This document shows, one piece after another, positions 3,230 through 63,003 of a stretch of 64,000 nucleotides of DNA. This DNA is from an uncultured bacterium (GTDB taxonomy: Bacteria; Patescibacteriota; Patescibacteriia; CAIQCM01): assembly GCA_963708045.1 (NCBI GenBank), contig OY970181.1, forward strand, positions 1,061,443 through 1,125,442, read 5' to 3'. Numbering within the stretch: the first letter of the stretch is position 1; each line of letters starts with the position of its first letter. The notes beneath the pieces are model-generated. The model saw nothing but the letters and a program-made list of their open reading frames with translations, was not told the DNA's origin and did no database searches. A program made the position numbers and the translations under genes.

Positions 3230-4072
3230 CTAATGCTTATGGTTATGTTCGTGGTGATGATGCCCGCTATGGTCGTTTGTCGGCAAAAAACTAATCCCCT
3301 GCCGGGCGGCGAGCGTGAGTGCTTCGCCTTCCAAAAATTTTTTTGGGTCGGTCGGCGAACCAACCGCGCAATGCAGACACATAAGCTTATTGACTTTGTG
3401 TCCGATAATATCCAGGTCATGCGTAACGATGACAATCGTCATTTTCTTTTTTTCATTCAAATACTGAAGCAGGTCATAAAATTCTTTTTCCGTCGCCACG
3501 TCAACGCCCAGCGTCGGCTCGTCAAAAAACAAAAGCTCAGGCTCGGAAACAATTGCGCGGCTGATTAGAACGCGTTGTTGTTGGCCGGTGGAAAGTTCGC
3601 CGATTTTCCTGGTAGCGAATTTTTCCATTCCAACTTCGCCAAGCGCTGTCGCAACCATAGCGCGATCGCTTTGACGGCGACTTGCGGACGCAGCACGTTT
3701 TCCAGCCAAGCCCGAAAGCACGACTTCAAAAACCGTGGCTGGAAAATTTCGGTCAAAATGAGTAGCGCGCTGAGCCAAATAGCCGATACGCCCGCCCAAA
3801 ACCGCCGCCGCTGGTTTTTTTCCCCAAAAAGAAACGTGGCCGGCGCGCGGTTCAATAAGACCGAGCATAATTTGCACGAGCGTTGTTTTGCCCGAACCAT
3901 TCGGCCCGACGATTCCAAAAAAATCACCGGCATTAATTTCAAAATTAACATTTTTCAGAATCGGTTCGTTCGCACGATAATAAAAACTAACATCTTCCGC
4001 CTTAACGACAGGTTCAATCACATTTACTGGACTAGCGATTACTTTTGGTTCTATTTTTGACTTTTTTCTCAT
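3230..4072 (-). CDS. metal-type (Zn/Mn, ZnuC-like) ABC transporter ATP-binding protein with His-rich C-terminus
   Basis: Walker A GPNGSGKTT, ABC signature LSTGQQQRV, Walker B LLFFDEPTLGVD. C-terminal HSGHHHHEHNHKH tail. Confidence 0.8.
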   Translation of the reverse strand: MRKKSKIEPKVIASPVNVIEPVVKAEDVSFYYRANEPILKNVNFEINAGDFFGIVGPNGSGKTTLVQIMLGLIEPRAGHVSFWGKKPAAAVLGGRIGYLAQRATHFDRNFPATVFEVVLSGLAGKRAASASRRQSDRAMVATALGEVGMEKFATRKIGELSTGQQQRVLISRAIVSEPELLFFDEPTLGVDVATEKEFYDLLQYLNEKKKMTIVIVTHDLDIIGHKVNKLMCLHCAVGSPTDPKKFLEGEALTLAARQGISFLPTNDHSGHHHHEHNHKH

Positions 4073-6322: not shown

Positions 6323-7324
6323 TTAAGTCCTGTCAAAAGCCTCGTTGTTTAATATCATATTTTGCAAACTTTGTGTGTCCCCGTGGCTCAAAAGTCCCAG
6401 ATATGACTTGATTGTCGCTTTGCTCGGATGCTCGGCAATGCGCTTAAACATTCGCCGTTCAGTCGTCTTTCGCAAAACGCGATGATCGGAGAAATGCGTC
6501 CACCCCAAAAAATCAACGCCTGAGCCAAAGGTCTTGAGAATTATCTTGTCCGGATGCATCGTTAGCCGTAAATTGTTTTGGAGATAATCGGATACAATCG
6601 GCAAAATCGCCAGCAACTCATTTTTATACGGTGACAAGAAAACAAAATCATCAGCATAGCGAATGTAATGTGAAAATCGTAAATACTGTTTCACAAATAA
6701 ATCCAGTTCATTCAAATACACATTGGCAAAAAGTTGCGAAGTCAAATTTCCGAGCGGTATACCAACACCCGATCGTCCGGAATTAAAACTACCAACAATA
6801 TTAACGAGGAGCAAACAAATATCGTCATCAGGTATTCGTTCAAAAAGAAGTTTTAATAATATCGTCTGATTGACGCTCGCAAAGAACTTGCGAATGTCGC
6901 ACTTCAAAACCCAAACTGTGCGCGTATGATTTTTGCCAACTTTCAAAGCAAGATCGCGAAACCGGTTCAAGGCCGCGTGCGTGCCTTTGTCTATTCGGCA
7001 AGAAAAGGAATCCGCTACGAAAATTCTATCAAAGAATGGGTATAGTAAACGGTGTACGGCATGGTGCAAAAGGCGGTCGCGCACCGAGGCTTTATGAATC
7101 TGCCGCGGCTTGGGGTCGGAAATGCGAAAGGCGCGGTAGCCGCCATGACGATATTTATGCGTAGTCAAATCTTTGTGAAGTTGTAAAATATTATCCATCA
7201 GGTTATCGGAGAACTCTTGCACATCGGTCTTGCCTCGTTTTCCGGCGGCGAATTCTTCCCAAGCGGCACATAAATTTTCAAGTGATGTAACTTCATCAAA
7301 GCTATGGATCAAAATCTTTTTCAT
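6323..7324 (-). CDS. diversity-generating retroelement (DGR) reverse transcriptase
   Basis: 333 aa RT with YADDFV catalytic motif. DGR-specific motif 4 IPLGNLTSQLFANVYLNELD (I/LGxxxSQ replaces the QG of group II/retron RTs). A TR/VR pair lies immediately adjacent. Confidence 0.85.
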   Translation of the reverse strand: MKKILIHSFDEVTSLENLCAAWEEFAAGKRGKTDVQEFSDNLMDNILQLHKDLTTHKYRHGGYRAFRISDPKPRQIHKASVRDRLLHHAVHRLLYPFFDRIFVADSFSCRIDKGTHAALNRFRDLALKVGKNHTRTVWVLKCDIRKFFASVNQTILLKLLFERIPDDDICLLLVNIVGSFNSGRSGVGIPLGNLTSQLFANVYLNELDLFVKQYLRFSHYIRYADDFVFLSPYKNELLAILPIVSDYLQNNLRLTMHPDKIILKTFGSGVDFLGWTHFSDHRVLRKTTERRMFKRIAEHPSKATIKSYLGLLSHGDTQSLQNMILNNEAFDRT

Positions 7325-7333
7325 AATTCTAGT

Positions 7334-7697
7334 ATGTTACCCCCCCCCGACGGATTTCAAGGAAATTCCAATTTTGCGACGAGCGATAGACGCATACAAA
7401 CTTTGGCACAGCTTTCTTAATGCCATGCCACGAATGACAAAGTACACTTTGGGATCGCGAATTGACGGCCTTTTTGGCGACTTGATTGAAAACTTATCAG
7501 CTGCAGGATATGCGATAAAAGAAAACAAGATATCATTTCTCAATTCCGCAAGCGTAAACCTTGATCTAGTCAAATTATTTCTGCGTCTTGCTTGGGAAAT
7601 AAAAGCTCTTGACCATAAAAAATACGCCGCAGTCTCGGAACCAATAAACGACATTGGGCGAATGCTTGGTGGTTGGCGAAAACACCTTATTACTTAA
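7334..7697 (+). CDS. avd: Avd-like four-helix-bundle accessory protein (start uncertain; ATG at 7334 is out of frame unless the C9 tract at 7340-7348 is one C shorter)
   Basis: Region ...FKEIPILRRAIDAYKLWHSFLNAMPRMTKYTLGSRIDGLFGDLIENLSAAGYA...FLNSASVNLDLVKLFLRLAWEIKALDHKKYAAVSEPINDIGRMLGGWRK matches the four-helix-bundle (bAvd / 23S IVS protein) family pattern. Alternative in-frame start TTG ~7374. Confidence 0.55.
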
Positions 7698-7735
7698 CAC
7701 CCTTGAACGTTGTCAAGGGTGTTAACTGAAAAGAG

Positions 7736-7873
7736 TTGCTGACGGCGAGGAAGAACCAGTTCGCGTTCCACTGATTGCTGGGGTCGTCGTAGTTGAGGTT
7801 GAGGTTCCGTTCGCGATCGTTCTCGTTCAAGTACGCAACGTGGAGATGATCACCGAAGCGAGCGACCGAGCCG
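7736..7873 (-). repeat. DGR template repeat (TR), 138 bp
   Basis: Near-identical to VR at 8210-8347. All 11 mismatches are plus-strand T (= minus-strand A) in this copy versus C (10) or A (1) in VR. Noncoding copy, rich in AAC codons when read in target frame. Confidence 0.8.
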
Positions 7874-8127
7874 TCTGAATATGTTCAAAACCGTCCGCAC
7901 CACCACCCCTTGAATTCTCTTGGGGTTGAATTTTATACCGAGCCCTTGCTCGCTGATTTTGAACACCAAGTATTTTCAGTTTCGCACGACGATGATGCTC
8001 TAATCAGCGGCTTGCCGCTAGATTATTCTGACCCGTCGTTCGCGCGCAGATTCGGCCGCCTGAAACCTTAGTCGCAAGCAGATTTGCCTAATCCAATTAT
8101 AATTATACACCAAAAATAAAAATCACC

Positions 8128-8156
8128 CCGCACAACACGAATGTTGTGCGGGGCCG
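8128..8156 (-). terminator. hairpin/terminator downstream of DGR target gene
   Basis: ccccgcacaac-acgaat-gttgtgcgggg stem-loop followed on minus strand by TGATTTTTATTTTT, ~50 nt after target stop. Confidence 0.4.
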
Positions 8157-8205
8157 AATGATCCAAGGGTACCGACCAAGCACCAAGTACCAAGAACCCA
8201 AGTGG

Positions 8206-8865
8206 TTACTTGCTGACGGCGAGGAAGAACCAGTTCGCGTCCCACTGAATGCTGGGGTCGCCGTAGCTGAGGCTGAGGTCCCGCTCGCGATCGTCCCCGC
8301 TCAAGTACGCAACGTGGAGATGACCACCGAAGCGAGCGACCGAGCCGAGGGCAGCAATCAGATGCCTCCTTTGCTCATCTGGATACTTACTCGCAAAAGC
8401 GAGTAGTTCCTCGTAGAGCGCAGGGCGCAAACCAACTGCGTCCATAGCTTCAAGAATTTTCTTGGTCGTCATTTGACGGTCAATCCTGAAGTATTGGAAT
8501 ACTACGTCGCCAGCCGTCCGAACAATGCTCTTACATCGCTCAATTGGCTCGAACCGAGCCTTGGCGTAATCGGGGTTCACCCAATCAAACACCTTACTGA
8601 GTTCTTCGAACGACGGCTGAAGGTATTTCACGAGGGCTGTGAATACTTCAACTACCTTTTCGTTTACAGCCGCGAGTGCAGCCAGTGCCGCCGTAACCAT
8701 AACTTTGCCAAGAGCTGGTTTCTCGCCCACCGCCACAAATAGTTCTTCGGTCATACCTCCACCATTAAGCGAGGCCAGAAATGGACCCAATCCGCCGAGT
8801 TCTGTTTTGAATAGGTTTGCCATTTTAGCTACCCTACCCTTTCTTAACCGTCCCGGTACATTCAA
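8206..8865 (-). CDS. DGR variable (target) protein; VR encodes the C-terminal 46 residues
   Basis: 219 aa (alternative start MANLFK at ~8823 has a GGGTAGG-like RBS). C-terminus ...GGHLHVAYLSGDDRERDLSLSYGDPSIQWDANWFFLAVSK. Variable positions correspond to AAC/GAC/AAT codons of TR. Confidence 0.75.
   Translation of the reverse strand: MNVPGRLRKGRVAKMANLFKTELGGLGPFLASLNGGGMTEELFVAVGEKPALGKVMVTAALAALAAVNEKVVEVFTALVKYLQPSFEELSKVFDWVNPDYAKARFEPIERCKSIVRTAGDVVFQYFRIDRQMTTKKILEAMDAVGLRPALYEELLAFASKYPDEQRRHLIAALGSVARFGGHLHVAYLSGDDRERDLSLSYGDPSIQWDANWFFLAVSK
8210..8347 (-). repeat. DGR variable repeat (VR)
   Basis: 138 bp matching TR, lying at the 3' end of the target ORF (stop at 8206-8208). Substitutions N to S/D/G/I relative to the TR-encoded peptide. 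Confidence 0.8.
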
Positions 8866-9029
8866 ACAAACGCACCACGCGCTGGTTTAAATTTCCCTGA
8901 TTTAAAAGGACGCACTTAATTTCATCATTTTAGAGACAAAAACAAATGCGTACTTTTTAAGCTCTCAACAAATGAAGATACCACAAAACAACGATTTTGT
9001 CAAGATTTCGCTTTGATAAATGTATATAT

Positions 9030-9057
9030 TTGACAAAAATGTATAGTTTTGTATAAT
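9030..9057 (+). promoter_or_regulatory. sigma70-like promoter TTGACA-N16-TATAAT
   Basis: tTTGACAaaaatgtatagttttgTATAATttagttaaatATG. The -10 element ends ~10 nt before the ATG of the HTH-GHKL gene, so the mRNA is near-leaderless. Confidence 0.5.
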
Positions 9058-9067
9058 TTAGTTAAAT

Positions 9068-9805
9068 ATGAGTAGATTAGACAAAAAACTATATACTATT
9101 AGCGAGGCGGCCAAATATCTTGGCGTTTCAATGGTCACACTCCGTCGCTGGCACAAAGACGAGTCTTTTAAGGCGTCTTTTGTTTCCCCTGGGGGTCACC
9201 GATATTATTCCTTGGCCGATCTTGAAAAAAAGACTCGCGGTATTTTTCAAATTGCCCGCGAATGGGCCGCTTCGGAAACGCCATTTGAACAAGCAAGCGA
9301 ATTTTACGCATCAACGAGCGACCGTTTTAAAACAAGACAAGGAAGAATGGACACGGAAATGAACGCCGCGCCAAAACCGGAAAAAAATATTTCTTTGATA
9401 TCCGCGTCCGTTGGAGAAATCGGAAATAATTCTTTTGACCACAACCTCGGTAATTGGCCAGATATTCCCGGAGTATTTTTTGCTTATGATCTTGGTAAAC
9501 GAGTCATCGTCCTTGCCGACCGAGGTGTCGGAGTCTTGGAAACATTAAGACGGATTAGACCCGGATTAAAAGATCACAACAGTGCGCTACTTGCCGCATT
9601 TACGGAGATACTTACCGCTCGCGCGCCGGAACATCGCGGCAACGGATTAAAATTCGTTAAAGAAGCACTAACGATTGCCGGAGCAAATTTATCTTTTCAA
9701 TCCGGCAATGCTATTGCCGAAATAAAAGGATCAAAACCCGAGTTAATAATTAAAAACGCGGACTCGTTCATTCGCGGCTCTCTCGCATTAATTGAATATC
9801 AATAA
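9068..9805 (+). CDS. MerR-type HTH fused to GHKL (anti-sigma-factor-like Ser kinase/ATPase) domain
   Basis: N-terminus YTISEAAKYLGVSMVTLRRWHKD is a MerR-like HTH. C-terminal half carries N-box EIGNNSFDHN, G1 ADRGVGV and G2 HRGNGLKF. Paralogous to the 62159-62671 protein. Confidence 0.7.
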   Translation: MSRLDKKLYTISEAAKYLGVSMVTLRRWHKDESFKASFVSPGGHRYYSLADLEKKTRGIFQIAREWAASETPFEQASEFYASTSDRFKTRQGRMDTEMNAAPKPEKNISLISASVGEIGNNSFDHNLGNWPDIPGVFFAYDLGKRVIVLADRGVGVLETLRRIRPGLKDHNSALLAAFTEILTARAPEHRGNGLKFVKEALTIAGANLSFQSGNAIAEIKGSKPELIIKNADSFIRGSLALIEYQ

Positions 9806-10097
9806 TATGATTATTGAAATAAAAAAATTTGGCACTGTGCTTACCTCTCGCCAATCAGGCAAAGAGGCCTATTCGGCTTTTTTGCCAATCTTAACAACAA
9901 CCAAAAAAAACGAAGAAATCATCGTTGATTTCGCTGGCGTTAGTGTTTTTTCCCCATCATGGGGCGACGAATTTTTAACGCCACTCCAAACGACTTTTGG
10001 AAAATACTTGACGCTAAAAAATACAGACAATCCTTCGGTTGCGCTAACAATTTTAACTTTGGAAAAAATCAACGAAGAAAAATTTAAAATCGTTTAA
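9792..10097 (+). CDS. DUF4325 (STAS-like) domain protein, partner of the GHKL protein
   Basis: 101 aa. FGTVLTSRQSGKEAY ... IVDFAGVSVFSPSWGDEFLTPL matches the DUF4325 pattern (DF.GV...SSF.DEF). Overlaps the upstream gene by 14 nt. Paralog at 61804-62082. Confidence 0.7.
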   Translation: MNINNMIIEIKKFGTVLTSRQSGKEAYSAFLPILTTTKKNEEIIVDFAGVSVFSPSWGDEFLTPLQTTFGKYLTLKNTDNPSVALTILTLEKINEEKFKIV

Positions 10098-10179: not shown

Positions 10180-10252
10180 ATCTCAATGTCTCAAGCAAAC
10201 TCCAAGATTCCTCGCCTTAGACAAAACGACCAGACAGGCTCGGAATGACGCC
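10180..10252. repeat. intergenic repeat, Y-module copy
   Basis: agattcctcgccttagacaaaacgaccagacaggctcggaatgacgcc is similar to the Y module at 62941-63003 and, in reverse complement, to 11169-11231. Confidence 0.45.
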
Positions 10253-61803: not shown

Positions 61804-62082
61804 CTATACAGTGGCCGATGCATTAATCGTTTGAAAAGTCGTTTTTACGCTAAGGTTATCGCCTTCGATGATCTTTATCTTTGATGCGCCAAAATCGTTT
61901 TTTAGACCGGTAACGAATTCATCGGCCCATGACGGAGTAAGGACATTAACTTTGGAAAAATCCAATTCAATCGGCTCGTCGCCGTCTTTGGGAATATTAT
62001 AAGCGCGCGCACTTAAATACGCTTCGCGTCCGGCGGGGCGGGAAATAAGAGTTGTACCAAATTTGCTAATGTCGATTCTCAT
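61804..62082 (-). CDS. DUF4325 (STAS-like) domain protein, paralog of 9792-10097
   Basis: FGTTLISRPAGREAY ... LDFSKVNVLTPSWADEFVTGL. Confidence 0.7.
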   Translation of the reverse strand: MRIDISKFGTTLISRPAGREAYLSARAYNIPKDGDEPIELDFSKVNVLTPSWADEFVTGLKNDFGASKIKIIEGDNLSVKTTFQTINASATV

Positions 62083-62158
62083 ATATTTTTCTTAACCGAT
62101 AATTCTATATAGGTTCCATTGACCGATGTTTCCGATTCCGCAATATACCTAAACATGT

Positions 62159-62671
62159 CTATATTGTCCATATATGGCCAGTCAGTTTTAGTTCTGCATT
62201 GCCTGATATAAATATGAACGATTCCATTCCACGAAGAAGATCAAGCGAGCGAACCACGAATTTTAATCCGTTACCGCGCTGTTCCGGCGCGCGGCCGGTG
62301 ATGGTTTCGGTAAAGGCGACTTTGATCGCCTCGCTGTCATCTTTAAGACCGGGTCGCACCTGCCTAAGGGTCGTTAAAACCCCGCGACCCCGATCGGCGA
62401 TCTTCATTCGAAAAACATTTCCTTTAATTTCATATTCAAACCAGCAACCAGGGACATCGGGCCAATTTCCAAAATTGTGGTCAAAACAATTTCCCGTCAA
62501 TTCGCCGGCCATCGCCGCAAGCAACCCTGACTCATCATCCGACCAATTATGAGCAATAAATTCAGGCCGCATCTTTTCAACCCGCGCCTGCGCCACATCA
62601 CGCGCCTCGCAATAAAATTCCGACGCAGGACGAACTCCCTCTTTGGATTTTGCCCAATCTAATGCTTTCAT
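62159..62671 (-). CDS. GHKL (anti-sigma-factor-like Ser kinase/ATPase) domain protein, paralog of the C-terminal half of 9068-9805
   Basis: ELTGNCFDHNFGNWPD, ADRGRGVL, QRGNGLKFV. About 55-60% identical by eye over the ATPase domain. No HTH. Confidence 0.7.
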   Translation of the reverse strand: MKALDWAKSKEGVRPASEFYCEARDVAQARVEKMRPEFIAHNWSDDESGLLAAMAGELTGNCFDHNFGNWPDVPGCWFEYEIKGNVFRMKIADRGRGVLTTLRQVRPGLKDDSEAIKVAFTETITGRAPEQRGNGLKFVVRSLDLLRGMESFIFISGNAELKLTGHIWTI

Positions 62672-62734: not shown

Positions 62735-62813
62735 TGGCGGGTGCGATGGGATTTGAACCCACGATCTTCTCCGTGACAGGGAGACGCGTTGAGCCGGGCT
62801 ACGCTACGCACCC
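62735..62813 (-). tRNA. tRNA-Asp (anticodon GTC)
   Basis: Hand-folded cloverleaf: acceptor GGGTGCG/CGCACCC, D-stem GCGT/ACGC, anticodon stem TCTCC/GGAGA with loop CTGTCAC, T-stem GTGGG/CCCAT with loop TTCAAAT, discriminator G, encoded CCA. Confidence 0.85.
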
Positions 62814-62894: not shown

Positions 62895-63003
62895 GGCGTC
62901 ATCCCGAAGAGCCAAAGCGATGAGGGAACTCAAAGTCTCTAAATAATCTCAGCGATTCCTCGTCCTAGACAAAACGACTAGACGGACTCGGAATGACGGC
63001 AAG
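62895..63003. repeat. intergenic X-Y repeat element (inverted relative to 11120-11277)
   Basis: ggcgtcatcccgaagagccaaagcgatgagggaactcaaagtctct + aaataatctcagcgattcctcgtcctagacaaaacgactagacggactcggaatgacggcaag. Confidence 0.55.

Follow-up and report, generated by a model that had tools for sequence, protein, structure and literature searches.

The closest described counterparts of the locus studied here are the SpoIIAB-SpoIIAA and RsbW-RsbV pairs of Bacillus, in which a gene for a small GHKL serine kinase-like protein lies beside a gene for a single-domain STAS protein. In the canonical partner switch, these adjacent genes are accompanied by a linked PP2C/SpoIIE-type phosphatase and a target sigma factor (PMC8256260). 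A PP2C phosphatase is likewise part of the SiaB-SiaC, SypE-SypA, BtrW-BtrV and HsbA systems, whose output is a separate protein, for example a diguanylate cyclase (PMC7647112, PMC10120452, PMC8256260). In Streptomyces, the WhiJ-BldB-AbaA system genetically couples an HTH factor that binds direct repeats to an anti-sigma-like HATPase and a small partner (PMC10294661), and BldC, a stand-alone MerR-like minimal HTH protein of 68 residues that has no effector domain, binds to direct repeats in a head-to-tail arrangement (PMC5859096).

The present locus, pair 1, lies in a window of 64,000 nt (the whole stretch of DNA that was analyzed) and encodes an HTH and GHKL fusion protein, A1, followed by a DUF4325 protein, B1. 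Its host belongs to the Patescibacteria (CPR), which make up a large and mostly uncultured share of bacterial diversity and have genomes of about 1 Mb. To our knowledge, these genomes hold very few recognisable regulators, and the control of their transcription is almost unknown. The pair is defined here in hundreds of CPR species, together with a likely cis-element and a testable mechanism. Our preferred reading, held with moderate confidence, is that pair 1 is a self-contained autoregulated operon and a lineage-wide regulator of Patescibacteria, in which a partner switch has DNA, contacted through the fused HTH, as its output. The features of pair 1 are as follows.

9068..9805, plus strand: A1, HTH and GHKL fusion protein of 245 aa (ORF list, domain search and structure model)
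9089..9229, plus strand: MerR/BldC/excisionase-type HTH of A1 (residues 8-54)
9299..9802, plus strand: GHKL (Bergerat-fold) domain of A1, SpoIIAB/RsbW type (residues ~78-245)
9413-9445, plus strand: N-box of the A1 GHKL domain
9518-9532, plus strand: G1 of the A1 GHKL domain
9635-9652, plus strand: G2 of the A1 GHKL domain
9807..10097, plus strand: B1, DUF4325 STAS-fold partner protein of 96 aa
9951-9962, plus strand: codons of the S49-P50-S51-W52 motif of B1

In the ORF list B1 starts at TTG 9792; the true start is ATG 9807 because P0240, a database protein of the same sequence, has 96 aa. The sequence-only reading of this DNA had described two paralogous gene pairs, and all four of its ORFs (A1 and B1, with A2 and B2 of copy 2) were found in place. 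Their paralogy holds, with 45% identity over 163 aa between A1 and A2 (E 2e-46) and 42% identity between B1 and B2 (E 1e-19).

Compared with SpoIIAB-SpoIIAA and RsbW-RsbV, the pair shares the gene adjacency, the N-box, G1 and G2 residues and the best structural matches of both partners. However, the kinase gene here precedes the STAS gene and encodes an HTH in fusion with the kinase, the STAS protein is a DUF4325 rather than a PF01740 member and appears to have a proline at the phospho-serine position, neither a sigma factor nor a PP2C phosphatase is encoded alongside, and sequence-level similarity to SpoIIAB and SpoIIAA is lacking. The fusion also sets the pair apart from SiaB-SiaC, SypE-SypA, BtrW-BtrV and HsbA, since the output domain is part of the kinase. 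WhiJ-BldB-AbaA resembles it in linking an HTH on direct repeats, a HATPase and a small partner, but consists of three separate proteins with an XRE-type HTH and with BldB/DUF397 in place of a STAS partner, and no homology of the pair to its components was detectable.

The HTH of A1 exceeds the Pfam cut-offs for PF00376 (30.9 bits against 28.2) and PF13411 (28.2 bits against 21.6), and such MerR/HTH_17 matches occur solely in A1, in agreement with the claim that only the first copy has a MerR-type HTH. The closest HTH structure is that of BldC, from which A1 differs by bearing a GHKL domain and having a dedicated partner protein. MerR, CueR and BmrR share the N-terminal winged HTH (Pfam MerR, MerR_1), but A1 has neither their C-terminal ligand-binding domain nor their long coiled-coil dimerisation helix; in the model, two short helices lead into the GHKL domain. 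This kinase-like domain forms a Bergerat alpha/beta sandwich whose best structural match in the structure model is SpoIIAB. The N-box, G1 and G2 motifs read from the sequence are all present and are the sole invariant columns (E117, N121, H125, N126, G135, D151, G153, G155, R190, G191, G193 and L194) in a set of 61 diverse relatives drawn mostly from 50%-identity representatives. The N-box, G116-E117-IGN-N121-SFD-H125-N126, contains the E-x3-N-x3-H pattern, whose Glu is catalytic and whose Asn binds Mg in GHKL ATPases of this type, and G1 (D151-R-G153-V-G155) and G2 (R190-G191-N-G193-L194) contain D-x-G-x-G and G-x-G-L; the segment of the flexible ATP lid at residues 188-190 has low pLDDT in the predicted structure. 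SpoIIAB residues E46/N50/H54 correspond to A1 E117/N121/H125 in an alignment that falls short of significance.

Of the domain assignments that the sequence-only reading had put forward for HMMER searches, MerR (A1) and DUF4325 (B1 and B2) scored above their cut-offs, but no HATPase profile reached its curated threshold in A1 or A2, and only sub-threshold matches were seen in 3/61 relatives. The GHKL domain of the window proteins found no match in Pfam, NCBIfam or PADLOC models, a PDB profile search returned only HTH proteins and no GHKL protein, and hhalign comparisons with SpoIIAB and SpoIIAA sequences were not significant. Homology to SpoIIAB and SpoIIAA therefore rests on predicted structure and motifs. 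By this evidence the two products have HTH-GHKL and DUF4325 domain identities, and the ATP-binding motifs of the kinase-like domain are intact.

Both partners are DUF4325 proteins, as had been proposed (PF14213; 29.7 bits for B1 and 39.1 bits for B2 against a cut-off of 23). A DUF4325 profile search of the PDB gave nothing useful; the structure model shows a STAS alpha/beta fold with SpoIIAA as its best match. In B1, the helix spanning residues 50-67 begins at the invariant P50, S51 does not vary either, and residue 49 is Ser or Thr throughout. When the secondary structures are matched without gaps, the phospho-serine of SpoIIAA (Ser58) falls on Pro50, and any acceptor would therefore have to be the residue at +1 or -1, unless none exists. 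The last case leads to an alternative that we consider improbable, namely that A1 is a GHKL ATPase other than a kinase: ATP-driven dimerisation or clamping, as in Hsp90, MutL and GyrB, would juxtapose two HTHs on adjacent repeats, and the unphosphorylated STAS protein would modulate the nucleotide cycle or sense a ligand. The invariant proline fits such a scheme, as do the top Foldseek matches, which are Hsp90/TRAP1 N-domains, and the fact that some STAS proteins function without phosphorylation, among them MlaB, whose type of STAS chain is found among the structural matches of B1. No PP2C phosphatase was found among the Pfam-annotated neighbours of the pair at the loci looked up, which is also in keeping with a non-kinase and leaves the reset step unaccounted for in the partner-switch reading.

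The survey of gene neighbourhoods suggested by the sequence-only reading shows that the pairing is conserved. A DUF4325 gene lies directly downstream of the kinase gene in 78/80 species-representative genomes, with a median gap of 7 nt; these 80 loci are mostly labelled as Patescibacteria lineages, and relatives are encoded in at least 563 genome stretches. No third conserved gene accompanies the pair (no neighbour family occurs in more than 5/80 loci). The module had been called partner-switching-like without being a canonical RsbW/RsbV circuit, and this description is upheld by the SpoIIAB and SpoIIAA matches and by the lack of a conserved sigma or phosphatase neighbour. In the window, the 20 flanking ORFs contained no sigma or PP2C domain, as had been stated, and among the other loci examined a Sigma70_r2 gene was seen in one only, 3 kb from the pair and unrelated.

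Could the target nevertheless be a sigma factor encoded elsewhere? In a canonical anti-sigma arrangement, the GHKL domain would sequester a distant sigma factor (e.g., the housekeeping one), B would be its antagonist and the HTH would only autoregulate the operon. We regard this as rather unlikely, although bona fide anti-sigma kinases and their antagonists are the best structural matches. Sequestration of the housekeeping sigma factor has been proposed for RsbW of Chlamydia, and a partner switch that acts on sigma-66 in a reduced genome has been described (PMC8256260). HTH-less paralogues exist and are likewise paired with DUF4325, so a DNA-binding domain is not required for the core to work. 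However, the same core has repeatedly gained different HTH types (MerR HTH in 23/61 relatives, with wHTH, XRE HTH or no N-domain in the others), an argument for DNA binding as an integral part of the output, and a conserved sigma gene is lacking next to the pair. The preferred reading, with DNA as output, finds further support at the promoter, where the following features are found.

9030..9057, plus strand: sigma-70-type promoter TTGACA-16-TATAAT, 12/12 matches
9021..9031, plus strand: putative operator repeat 1 (TGTATATATTT), by family consensus, PWM 14.4, abutting and overlapping the -35 element
9040..9050, plus strand: putative operator repeat 2 (TGTATAGTTTT), exact consensus in the -35/-10 spacer, PWM 19.3, starting 19 nt after repeat 1
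9050..9059, plus strand: putative operator repeat 3 (TGTATAATTT), including the -10 hexamer, PWM 12.0, starting 10 nt after repeat 2

A near-consensus leaderless promoter had been predicted for copy 1, and the prediction stands: the ATG is only 10 nt past the -10 element, so the A1 mRNA is effectively leaderless, and the same 10-nt distance recurs in Uhrbacteria-type loci. Promoters of HTH-bearing members contain two to four phased direct repeats of TGYATAGWTTT that overlap the -35 and -10 elements at spacings of 10 or 19-21 nt. In the same loci in which the repeat had first been noticed by eye, the coding strand of 75 upstream regions of 120 nt contains 128 exact copies of TGYATAG (14.2 per kb) and the opposite strand 4, compared with 0.052 per kb in the flanks, a strand-specific enrichment of about 270-fold upstream of HTH-bearing members. 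Repeat clusters occur at A promoters only, and in a PWM scan of the window the sole phased pairs are those at 9019/9038/9048, where 0.18 pairs would be expected by chance. The repeat was not found upstream of the HTH-less members checked (L089, L091, L092, L098, L099 and the window's A2), and members in which a winged HTH replaces the MerR HTH have a different 14-nt repeat.

Because the repeats lie upstream of HTH-bearing and not of HTH-less members, they point to a putative operator of the A1 promoter and hence to autoregulation. The conserved direct repeats also lend support to the earlier proposal of a direct coupling of the kinase to DNA through the HTH. Weighing against an operator is the -10-like stretch within the repeat itself (TGTATAAT). 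As with MerR, CueR and BmrR, one copy of the putative operator sits in the -35/-10 spacer, but this spacer is 16 nt instead of 19-20 nt and the repeats are direct instead of inverted. A 9-nt inverted repeat (TTTTGTCAA/TTGACAAAA) was also considered as an operator and was rejected, as it is formed by the -35 boxes of two divergently oriented promoters, those of A1 and of a 219-aa ORF. The putative repeat operator at HTH-bearing promoters, like the frameshift in copy 2 presented below, is newly described here.

How might such a switch operate? We hypothesize that the HTH of A1 binds the phased TGYATAGWTTT repeats, and since these border the -35 element, occupy the spacer and extend over the -10 element, binding would repress A1's own leaderless promoter; other targets are presumably located elsewhere in the genome. 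The GHKL domain would bind unphosphorylated B1, as SpoIIAB does SpoIIAA, and this binding would alter the oligomeric state or DNA affinity of A1. ATP-dependent phosphorylation of B1 by A1, at Ser51 or Ser/Thr49 by the N-terminus of the STAS helix, would then release B1. Through the fused HTH, DNA would take the place that a sequestered sigma factor has as output. A bolder version, which we put forward only tentatively, is that the pair is a sigma-independent switch whose kinase is itself the transcription factor and a lineage-wide master regulator of Patescibacteria, such that the ATP/ADP or stress state of the cell, sensed by way of the kinase-STAS cycle, would set the occupancy of the TGYATAGWTTT array and HTH-less paralogues such as copy 2 would titrate shared STAS partners. 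Literature on DUF4325, and on CPR together with partner switching, yielded no description of this system. A partner switch wired straight to DNA, if true, would extend the repertoire of kinase/STAS signalling and give part of DUF4325 a function, and the operator consensus would make regulon prediction possible in any complete CPR genome.

The best reading of the module is that it is regulatory and not a defence system, and the suggestion of a conflict-type module in the sequence-only reading is disfavoured. For a defence, abortive infection or toxin-antitoxin-like module that lies beside the DGR by chance, which we judge very unlikely, one can cite the match of the HTH to the PADLOC model mad1 (E 2.9e-10) and of the GHKL core to phrog_3364 (E 1.1e-11), a phage family without known function. 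Distant relatives (30-35% identity) occur next to the CI/Cro region of a Coprococcus phage and on plasmids of Aminobacter and Skermanella, where they share an operon with a STAS-like gene and DUF499, and DUF4325 has been coupled to a PIN/VapC group (PMC5499597). However, the GHKL core, A2, B1 and B2 have no match in PADLOC-DB 2.0, tblastn against 50,697 phage records gave no match, and a relative is found on 1/2.9 million viral contigs as opposed to the genome stretches counted above. The family is moreover compact and slowly evolving, and its genes lie in varied, for the most part housekeeping surroundings (MurJ, DnaG, Mur ligases, BipA and glycosyltransferases).

The surroundings of both copies agree with what had been read from the window. 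Copy 1 lies divergently beside the DGR target, the 219-aa ORF, with the RT at 6323-7324 and bAvd at 7230-7697; tRNA-Asp (62735-62813, minus strand), the single Rfam match in the window, adjoins A2; and a 45-nt intergenic repeat is present near both copies (10206-10250 and 62954-62998). This repeat is 89% identical over 45 nt, with about 70 nt alignable, and has neither a stable RNA fold (z about 0) nor an Rfam match. A conserved link to the DGR was considered and rejected, since Uhrbacteria have an unrelated divergent neighbour of 220 aa and no neighbour family, the DGR included, recurs in the 80 loci. The adjacency to the DGR, tRNA and intergenic repeat is not conserved and is therefore incidental. 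Copy 2 has the following features.

62159..62671, minus strand: A2, GHKL paralogue without HTH, cut to 170 aa by a frameshift
62168..62176, minus strand: frameshift site CATATATGG, net +2 nt relative to an intact homologue (DNA alignment and frame translations)
62079..62171, minus strand: out-of-frame remnant encoding the lost A2 C-terminus (ending in DNIDMFRYIAESETSVNGTYIELSVKKNI and a stop), the stop overlapping the B2 ATG (ATGA)
61804..62082, minus strand: B2, DUF4325 STAS-fold partner of 92 aa, apparently intact (Pfam DUF4325 39.1 bits)

The HTH-less copy 2 is a member of a sister subfamily in which the pairing with DUF4325 is likewise invariable. The idea of a duplicated module is correct in that a paralogous second pair exists, but the duplicate is not intact. 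Homologues of A2 that lack the frameshift are 194-198 aa long, and two independent Logan assemblies (ERR15459707 and ERR12035931) likewise yield the 170-aa product as a gene call. Because the +2 nt shift recurs in this way, the A2 kinase gene is probably defunct through a 2-nt insertion. Cross-regulation of copy 2 by A1 was considered and is unsupported, as operator-like repeats are absent upstream of A2 and the other HTH-less members. The frameshift had been overlooked in the earlier description. The 4-nt overlap between the kinase stop and the DUF4325 start is likewise seen in the intact locus L089.

Two paralogous gene pairs lie in the window, as the sequence-only reading had described, each with a putative GHKL protein (Bergerat-fold ATP-binding domain, SpoIIAB/RsbW type) followed by a STAS-fold DUF4325 partner:

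9068-9805, plus strand: A1, 245-aa ORF of pair 1
ATG at 9807 (MIIEIKKFG), plus strand: B1, 96 aa, pair 1, starting 1 base past the A1 stop
62159-62671, minus strand: A2, 170 aa, pair 2
61804-62082, minus strand: B2, 92 aa, pair 2

A1 and A2 share 45% identity across 163 aa (E 2e-46), and B1 and B2 share 42% (E 1e-19). The mechanical ORF of B1 begins at TTG 9792; all homologues and an identical database protein (P0240, 96 aa) begin at ATG 9807. The MerR and DUF4325 assignments were borne out by Pfam, with HTH_17, MerR and MerR_1 matching residues 8-54 of A1 over curated cut-offs and DUF4325 matching B1 and B2 over its cut-off. The C-terminal 190 residues of A1, and A2, have no Pfam match, and NCBIfam and PADLOC return nothing beyond HTH-level matches for the pair proteins.

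What, then, is the C-terminal domain of A1? An AlphaFold2 model built from a 37-sequence alignment (mean pLDDT 86.5, pTM 0.79) contains neither a long coiled-coil nor a MerR-type effector domain. Foldseek returns GHKL domains among the matches to this model, and the predicted domain is closest to anti-sigma serine kinases. In a conservation alignment of 61 diverse relatives, mainly representatives of 50%-identity clusters, the sole invariant columns are E117, N121, H125, N126, G135, D151, G153, G155, R190, G191, G193 and L194. By motif these correspond to the Mg-ATP-binding boxes of the GHKL superfamily (N-box, G1 and G2), and their invariance argues for strong selection on the ATP site. HATPase matches occur in just 3 of the 61 relatives, all sub-threshold, and hhalign against SpoIIAB was not significant, the motifs nonetheless aligning as expected. 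The GHKL assignment made from the sequence is thus upheld by predicted structure and motifs but not by sequence profiles.

B1 was modeled with a pLDDT of 96.1, and by these predicted structures the A and B gene products each independently find one half of the same known complex. A phosphorylatable Ser/Thr had been proposed as something to look for in the DUF4325 protein. Across 34 DUF4325 relatives, the motif D41-F42…P50-S51-W52-x-D54-E55-F56 never varies, and every one has Ser or Thr at position 49. In canonical STAS proteins the phospho-serine lies in a conserved loop where the corresponding helix begins (PMC8256260). In the B1 model, P50 opens helix 50-67. In a gapless register with SpoIIAA, Ser58 of SpoIIAA falls on P50, so that the candidate acceptor of B1, if there is one, would be S51 or S/T49. 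A proline at the canonical acceptor position and the absence of a phosphatase from the pair's vicinity speak for a non-kinase, ATP-driven dimerization clamp with an unphosphorylated STAS modulator, a reading that we consider unlikely.

A word-indexed protein search with A1 gave 4780 matches, the named ones being Patescibacteria (CPR) or Uhrbacteria, and scanning a single genome for each GTDB species gave at least 563 stretches with a gene for a relative. Among the labeled genomes are Uhr-, Woese-, Ames-, Staskawicz-, Morani-, Peregrini-, Kerfeld-, Falkow-, Magasanik-, Berkel-, Colwell-, Nealson-, Lloyd- and Terrybacteria. The titles 'uncultured Gammaproteobacteria bacterium' and 'Bdellovibrionales', borne by many TPA MAGs that have a CPR-type operon (L011, L013, L015-L018 and others), are probably placeholders or taxonomically wrong. 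Relatives found by running phmmer exhaustively against 1.84 billion representatives form just 297 clusters, which fall into two length classes, ~240-255 aa with a ~60-residue N-terminal extension and ~190-200 aa without it. Of the 61 representatives, 23 have a MerR HTH at the N-terminus, ~5 a winged HTH (wHTH) and 1 an XRE HTH; in most others no N-terminal domain is recognized.

The pairing inferred from the window is conserved: of 80 loci kept, 78 have a DUF4325 ORF next downstream on the same strand, and one of the two exceptions ends at a contig end. From A stop to B start the median distance is 7 nt, with 63 of 72 loci at ≤20 nt. DUF4325 also follows wHTH and HTH-less forms; at one such locus the next ORF is 90 aa with no Pfam match on record. 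Clustering of all remaining flanking ORFs yields no family shared by over 5 of the 80 loci, and the Pfam-annotated neighbors are housekeeping genes, different at each locus. The module therefore consists of two genes only. The earlier remark that no sigma factor or PP2C phosphatase is nearby holds across the loci examined; the diversity-generating retroelement (DGR) noted beside copy 1 adjoins it in the window, with no conserved link to the pair. A conventional anti-sigma factor would have to act on an unlinked sigma factor, its HTH serving autoregulation only, and we hold this to be improbable.

To what DNA would the HTH bind? When the 110 nt upstream of A genes were aligned on start codons, 2-4 direct copies of TG(T/C)ATAG(A/T)TTT appeared in nearly every locus, distant CPR lineages included. 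At A1 they are arranged as follows:

9021-9031: repeat copy 1, abutting the -35 element of the A1 promoter
9030-9057: A1 promoter, perfect TTGACA-16-TATAAT
9040-9050: repeat copy 2, filling the -35/-10 spacer
9050-9059: repeat copy 3, containing the -10 element

In the 120 nt upstream of A at 75 species loci, exact TGYATAG heptamers number 128 on the coding strand (14.2 per kb) and 4 on the opposite strand. The rest of the flank (887 kb, both strands) has 0.052 per kb, which makes the enrichment ~270-fold, for a motif discovered and counted in the same loci. Copies start 10 nt apart in 13 cases and 19-21 nt apart in 40, equal to one or two helical turns, and conservation of the T-rich tail is 81-98%. 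Where the exact heptamer is missing, lineages carry near variants such as TGTATAC, TGTATAT, TGGGTAG and TGAGTAG. Clusters occur at A promoters only, and a whole-window PWM scan finds phased pairs only at the A1 promoter (chance expectation 0.18 pairs). No such motif lies upstream of the HTH-less members examined (L089, L091, L092, L098, L099 and A2), and two wHTH loci related to each other, L096 and L097, have a different 14-nt repeat, ATAGTGTATAATAC; the repeats thus vary with the DNA-binding domain, both with its presence and with its type. The ATAGTGTATAATAC repeat, in tandem with a 14-nt period (L096 2455-2495, L097 1285-1325), covers the -10 element and transcription start of these wHTH members' own promoters and retains a TGTATA core. 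Because the repeats track this domain and BldC binds direct repeats head-to-tail (PMC5859096), the most economical reading would be autoregulation through the HTH of A. Repression is suggested by the position of the putative operators, which cover the -35, the spacer and the -10 of an optimal promoter.

We hypothesize, with somewhat more belief than doubt, that pair 1 is a partner switch whose output is the fused HTH. A1 would sit on its own repeat array and repress its own promoter, unphosphorylated B1 would dock on the GHKL domain and alter DNA binding, and ATP-dependent phosphorylation of B1 would release it. The parts are of known kinds (GHKL anti-sigma-type kinase, STAS protein, BldC-like HTH); a literature search found no description of the fusion, its spread over many Patescibacteria lineages, the missing sigma and phosphatase partners, or the operator. 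Database names are 'helix-turn-helix domain-containing protein', 'excisionase family DNA binding protein' or 'hypothetical', and JGI labels a few HTH-less members 'anti-sigma regulatory factor'.

The sequence-only reading had allowed for either a regulatory or a conflict-type module, and only the former is favored here. Evidence for conflict is confined to distant relatives: a phage family of no assigned function (PHROGs phrog_3364) matches the GHKL core (E 1e-11), a relative in a Coprococcus phage (L095, 3066-4070) adjoins a CI/Cro-type switch, and a 274-aa relative with sub-threshold HATPase_c_2 on Aminobacter plasmid pMET2 (L093, 1556-7917) shares an operon with a 189-aa 'STAS-like' protein, a DUF4417 protein and a 1007-aa DUF499 protein. 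However, the family is nearly absent from viral data, PADLOC matches are lacking, and the pair is present in the genomes of many CPR species, amid housekeeping genes, which makes a conflict role for it very improbable. Outside CPR, the association of GHKL and STAS-like proteins may belong to mobile, defence-like contexts. In Francisella prophage KIRK, a DUF4325 gene beside the CI repressor is immediately preceded by a hypothetical gene of 293 aa (PMC7924643).

The duplication itself is real as to the second pair but not as to an intact second A gene. The close homologues of A2 have 194-198 aa, and the ORF in the window ends at 170 aa. The lost C-terminus, DNIDMFRYIAESETSVNGTYIELSVKKNI, is readable in another frame, and its TGA overlaps the B2 ATG with the same 4-nt overlap seen in the intact locus L089, against which DNA alignment places a net +2 nt at CATATATGG (62168-62176). 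The 170-aa product is also called in two independent Logan assemblies from different runs, one of which has the 30-codon remnant too; therefore the frameshift belongs to the organism and not to one assembly. What is lost corresponds to the final beta-hairpin in the fold (A1 strands 207-243), and A2 is probably non-functional; B2 looks intact.

The DGR beside pair 1 spans 6323-8865:

6323-7324, minus strand: reverse transcriptase (RVT_1)
7230-7697, plus strand: bAvd-like ORF
8206-8865, minus strand: 219-aa ORF, no Pfam match

At its C-terminus (…DLSLSYGDPSIQWDANWFFLAVSK) the 219-aa ORF is similar to a short ORF at 7690-7830 (…NLNYDDPSNQWNANWFFLAVSN), and the two look like a TR/VR pair; the promoter of the 219-aa ORF (9003->8975) diverges from that of A1. 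A 45-nt intergenic repeat occurs in the same orientation downstream of B1 (10206-10250) and between rplT and tRNA-Asp (62954-62998), at 89% identity with ~70 nt alignable; it matches no Rfam family and folds no better than shuffled sequence. The HTH-less A2-type pair lies just downstream of a tRNA gene (62735-62813) and a terminator hairpin, and at L091 a tRNA-like 3' end (~3800-3850) apparently has the same placement upstream of an HTH-less pair, so this site may be a recurrent position of that form.
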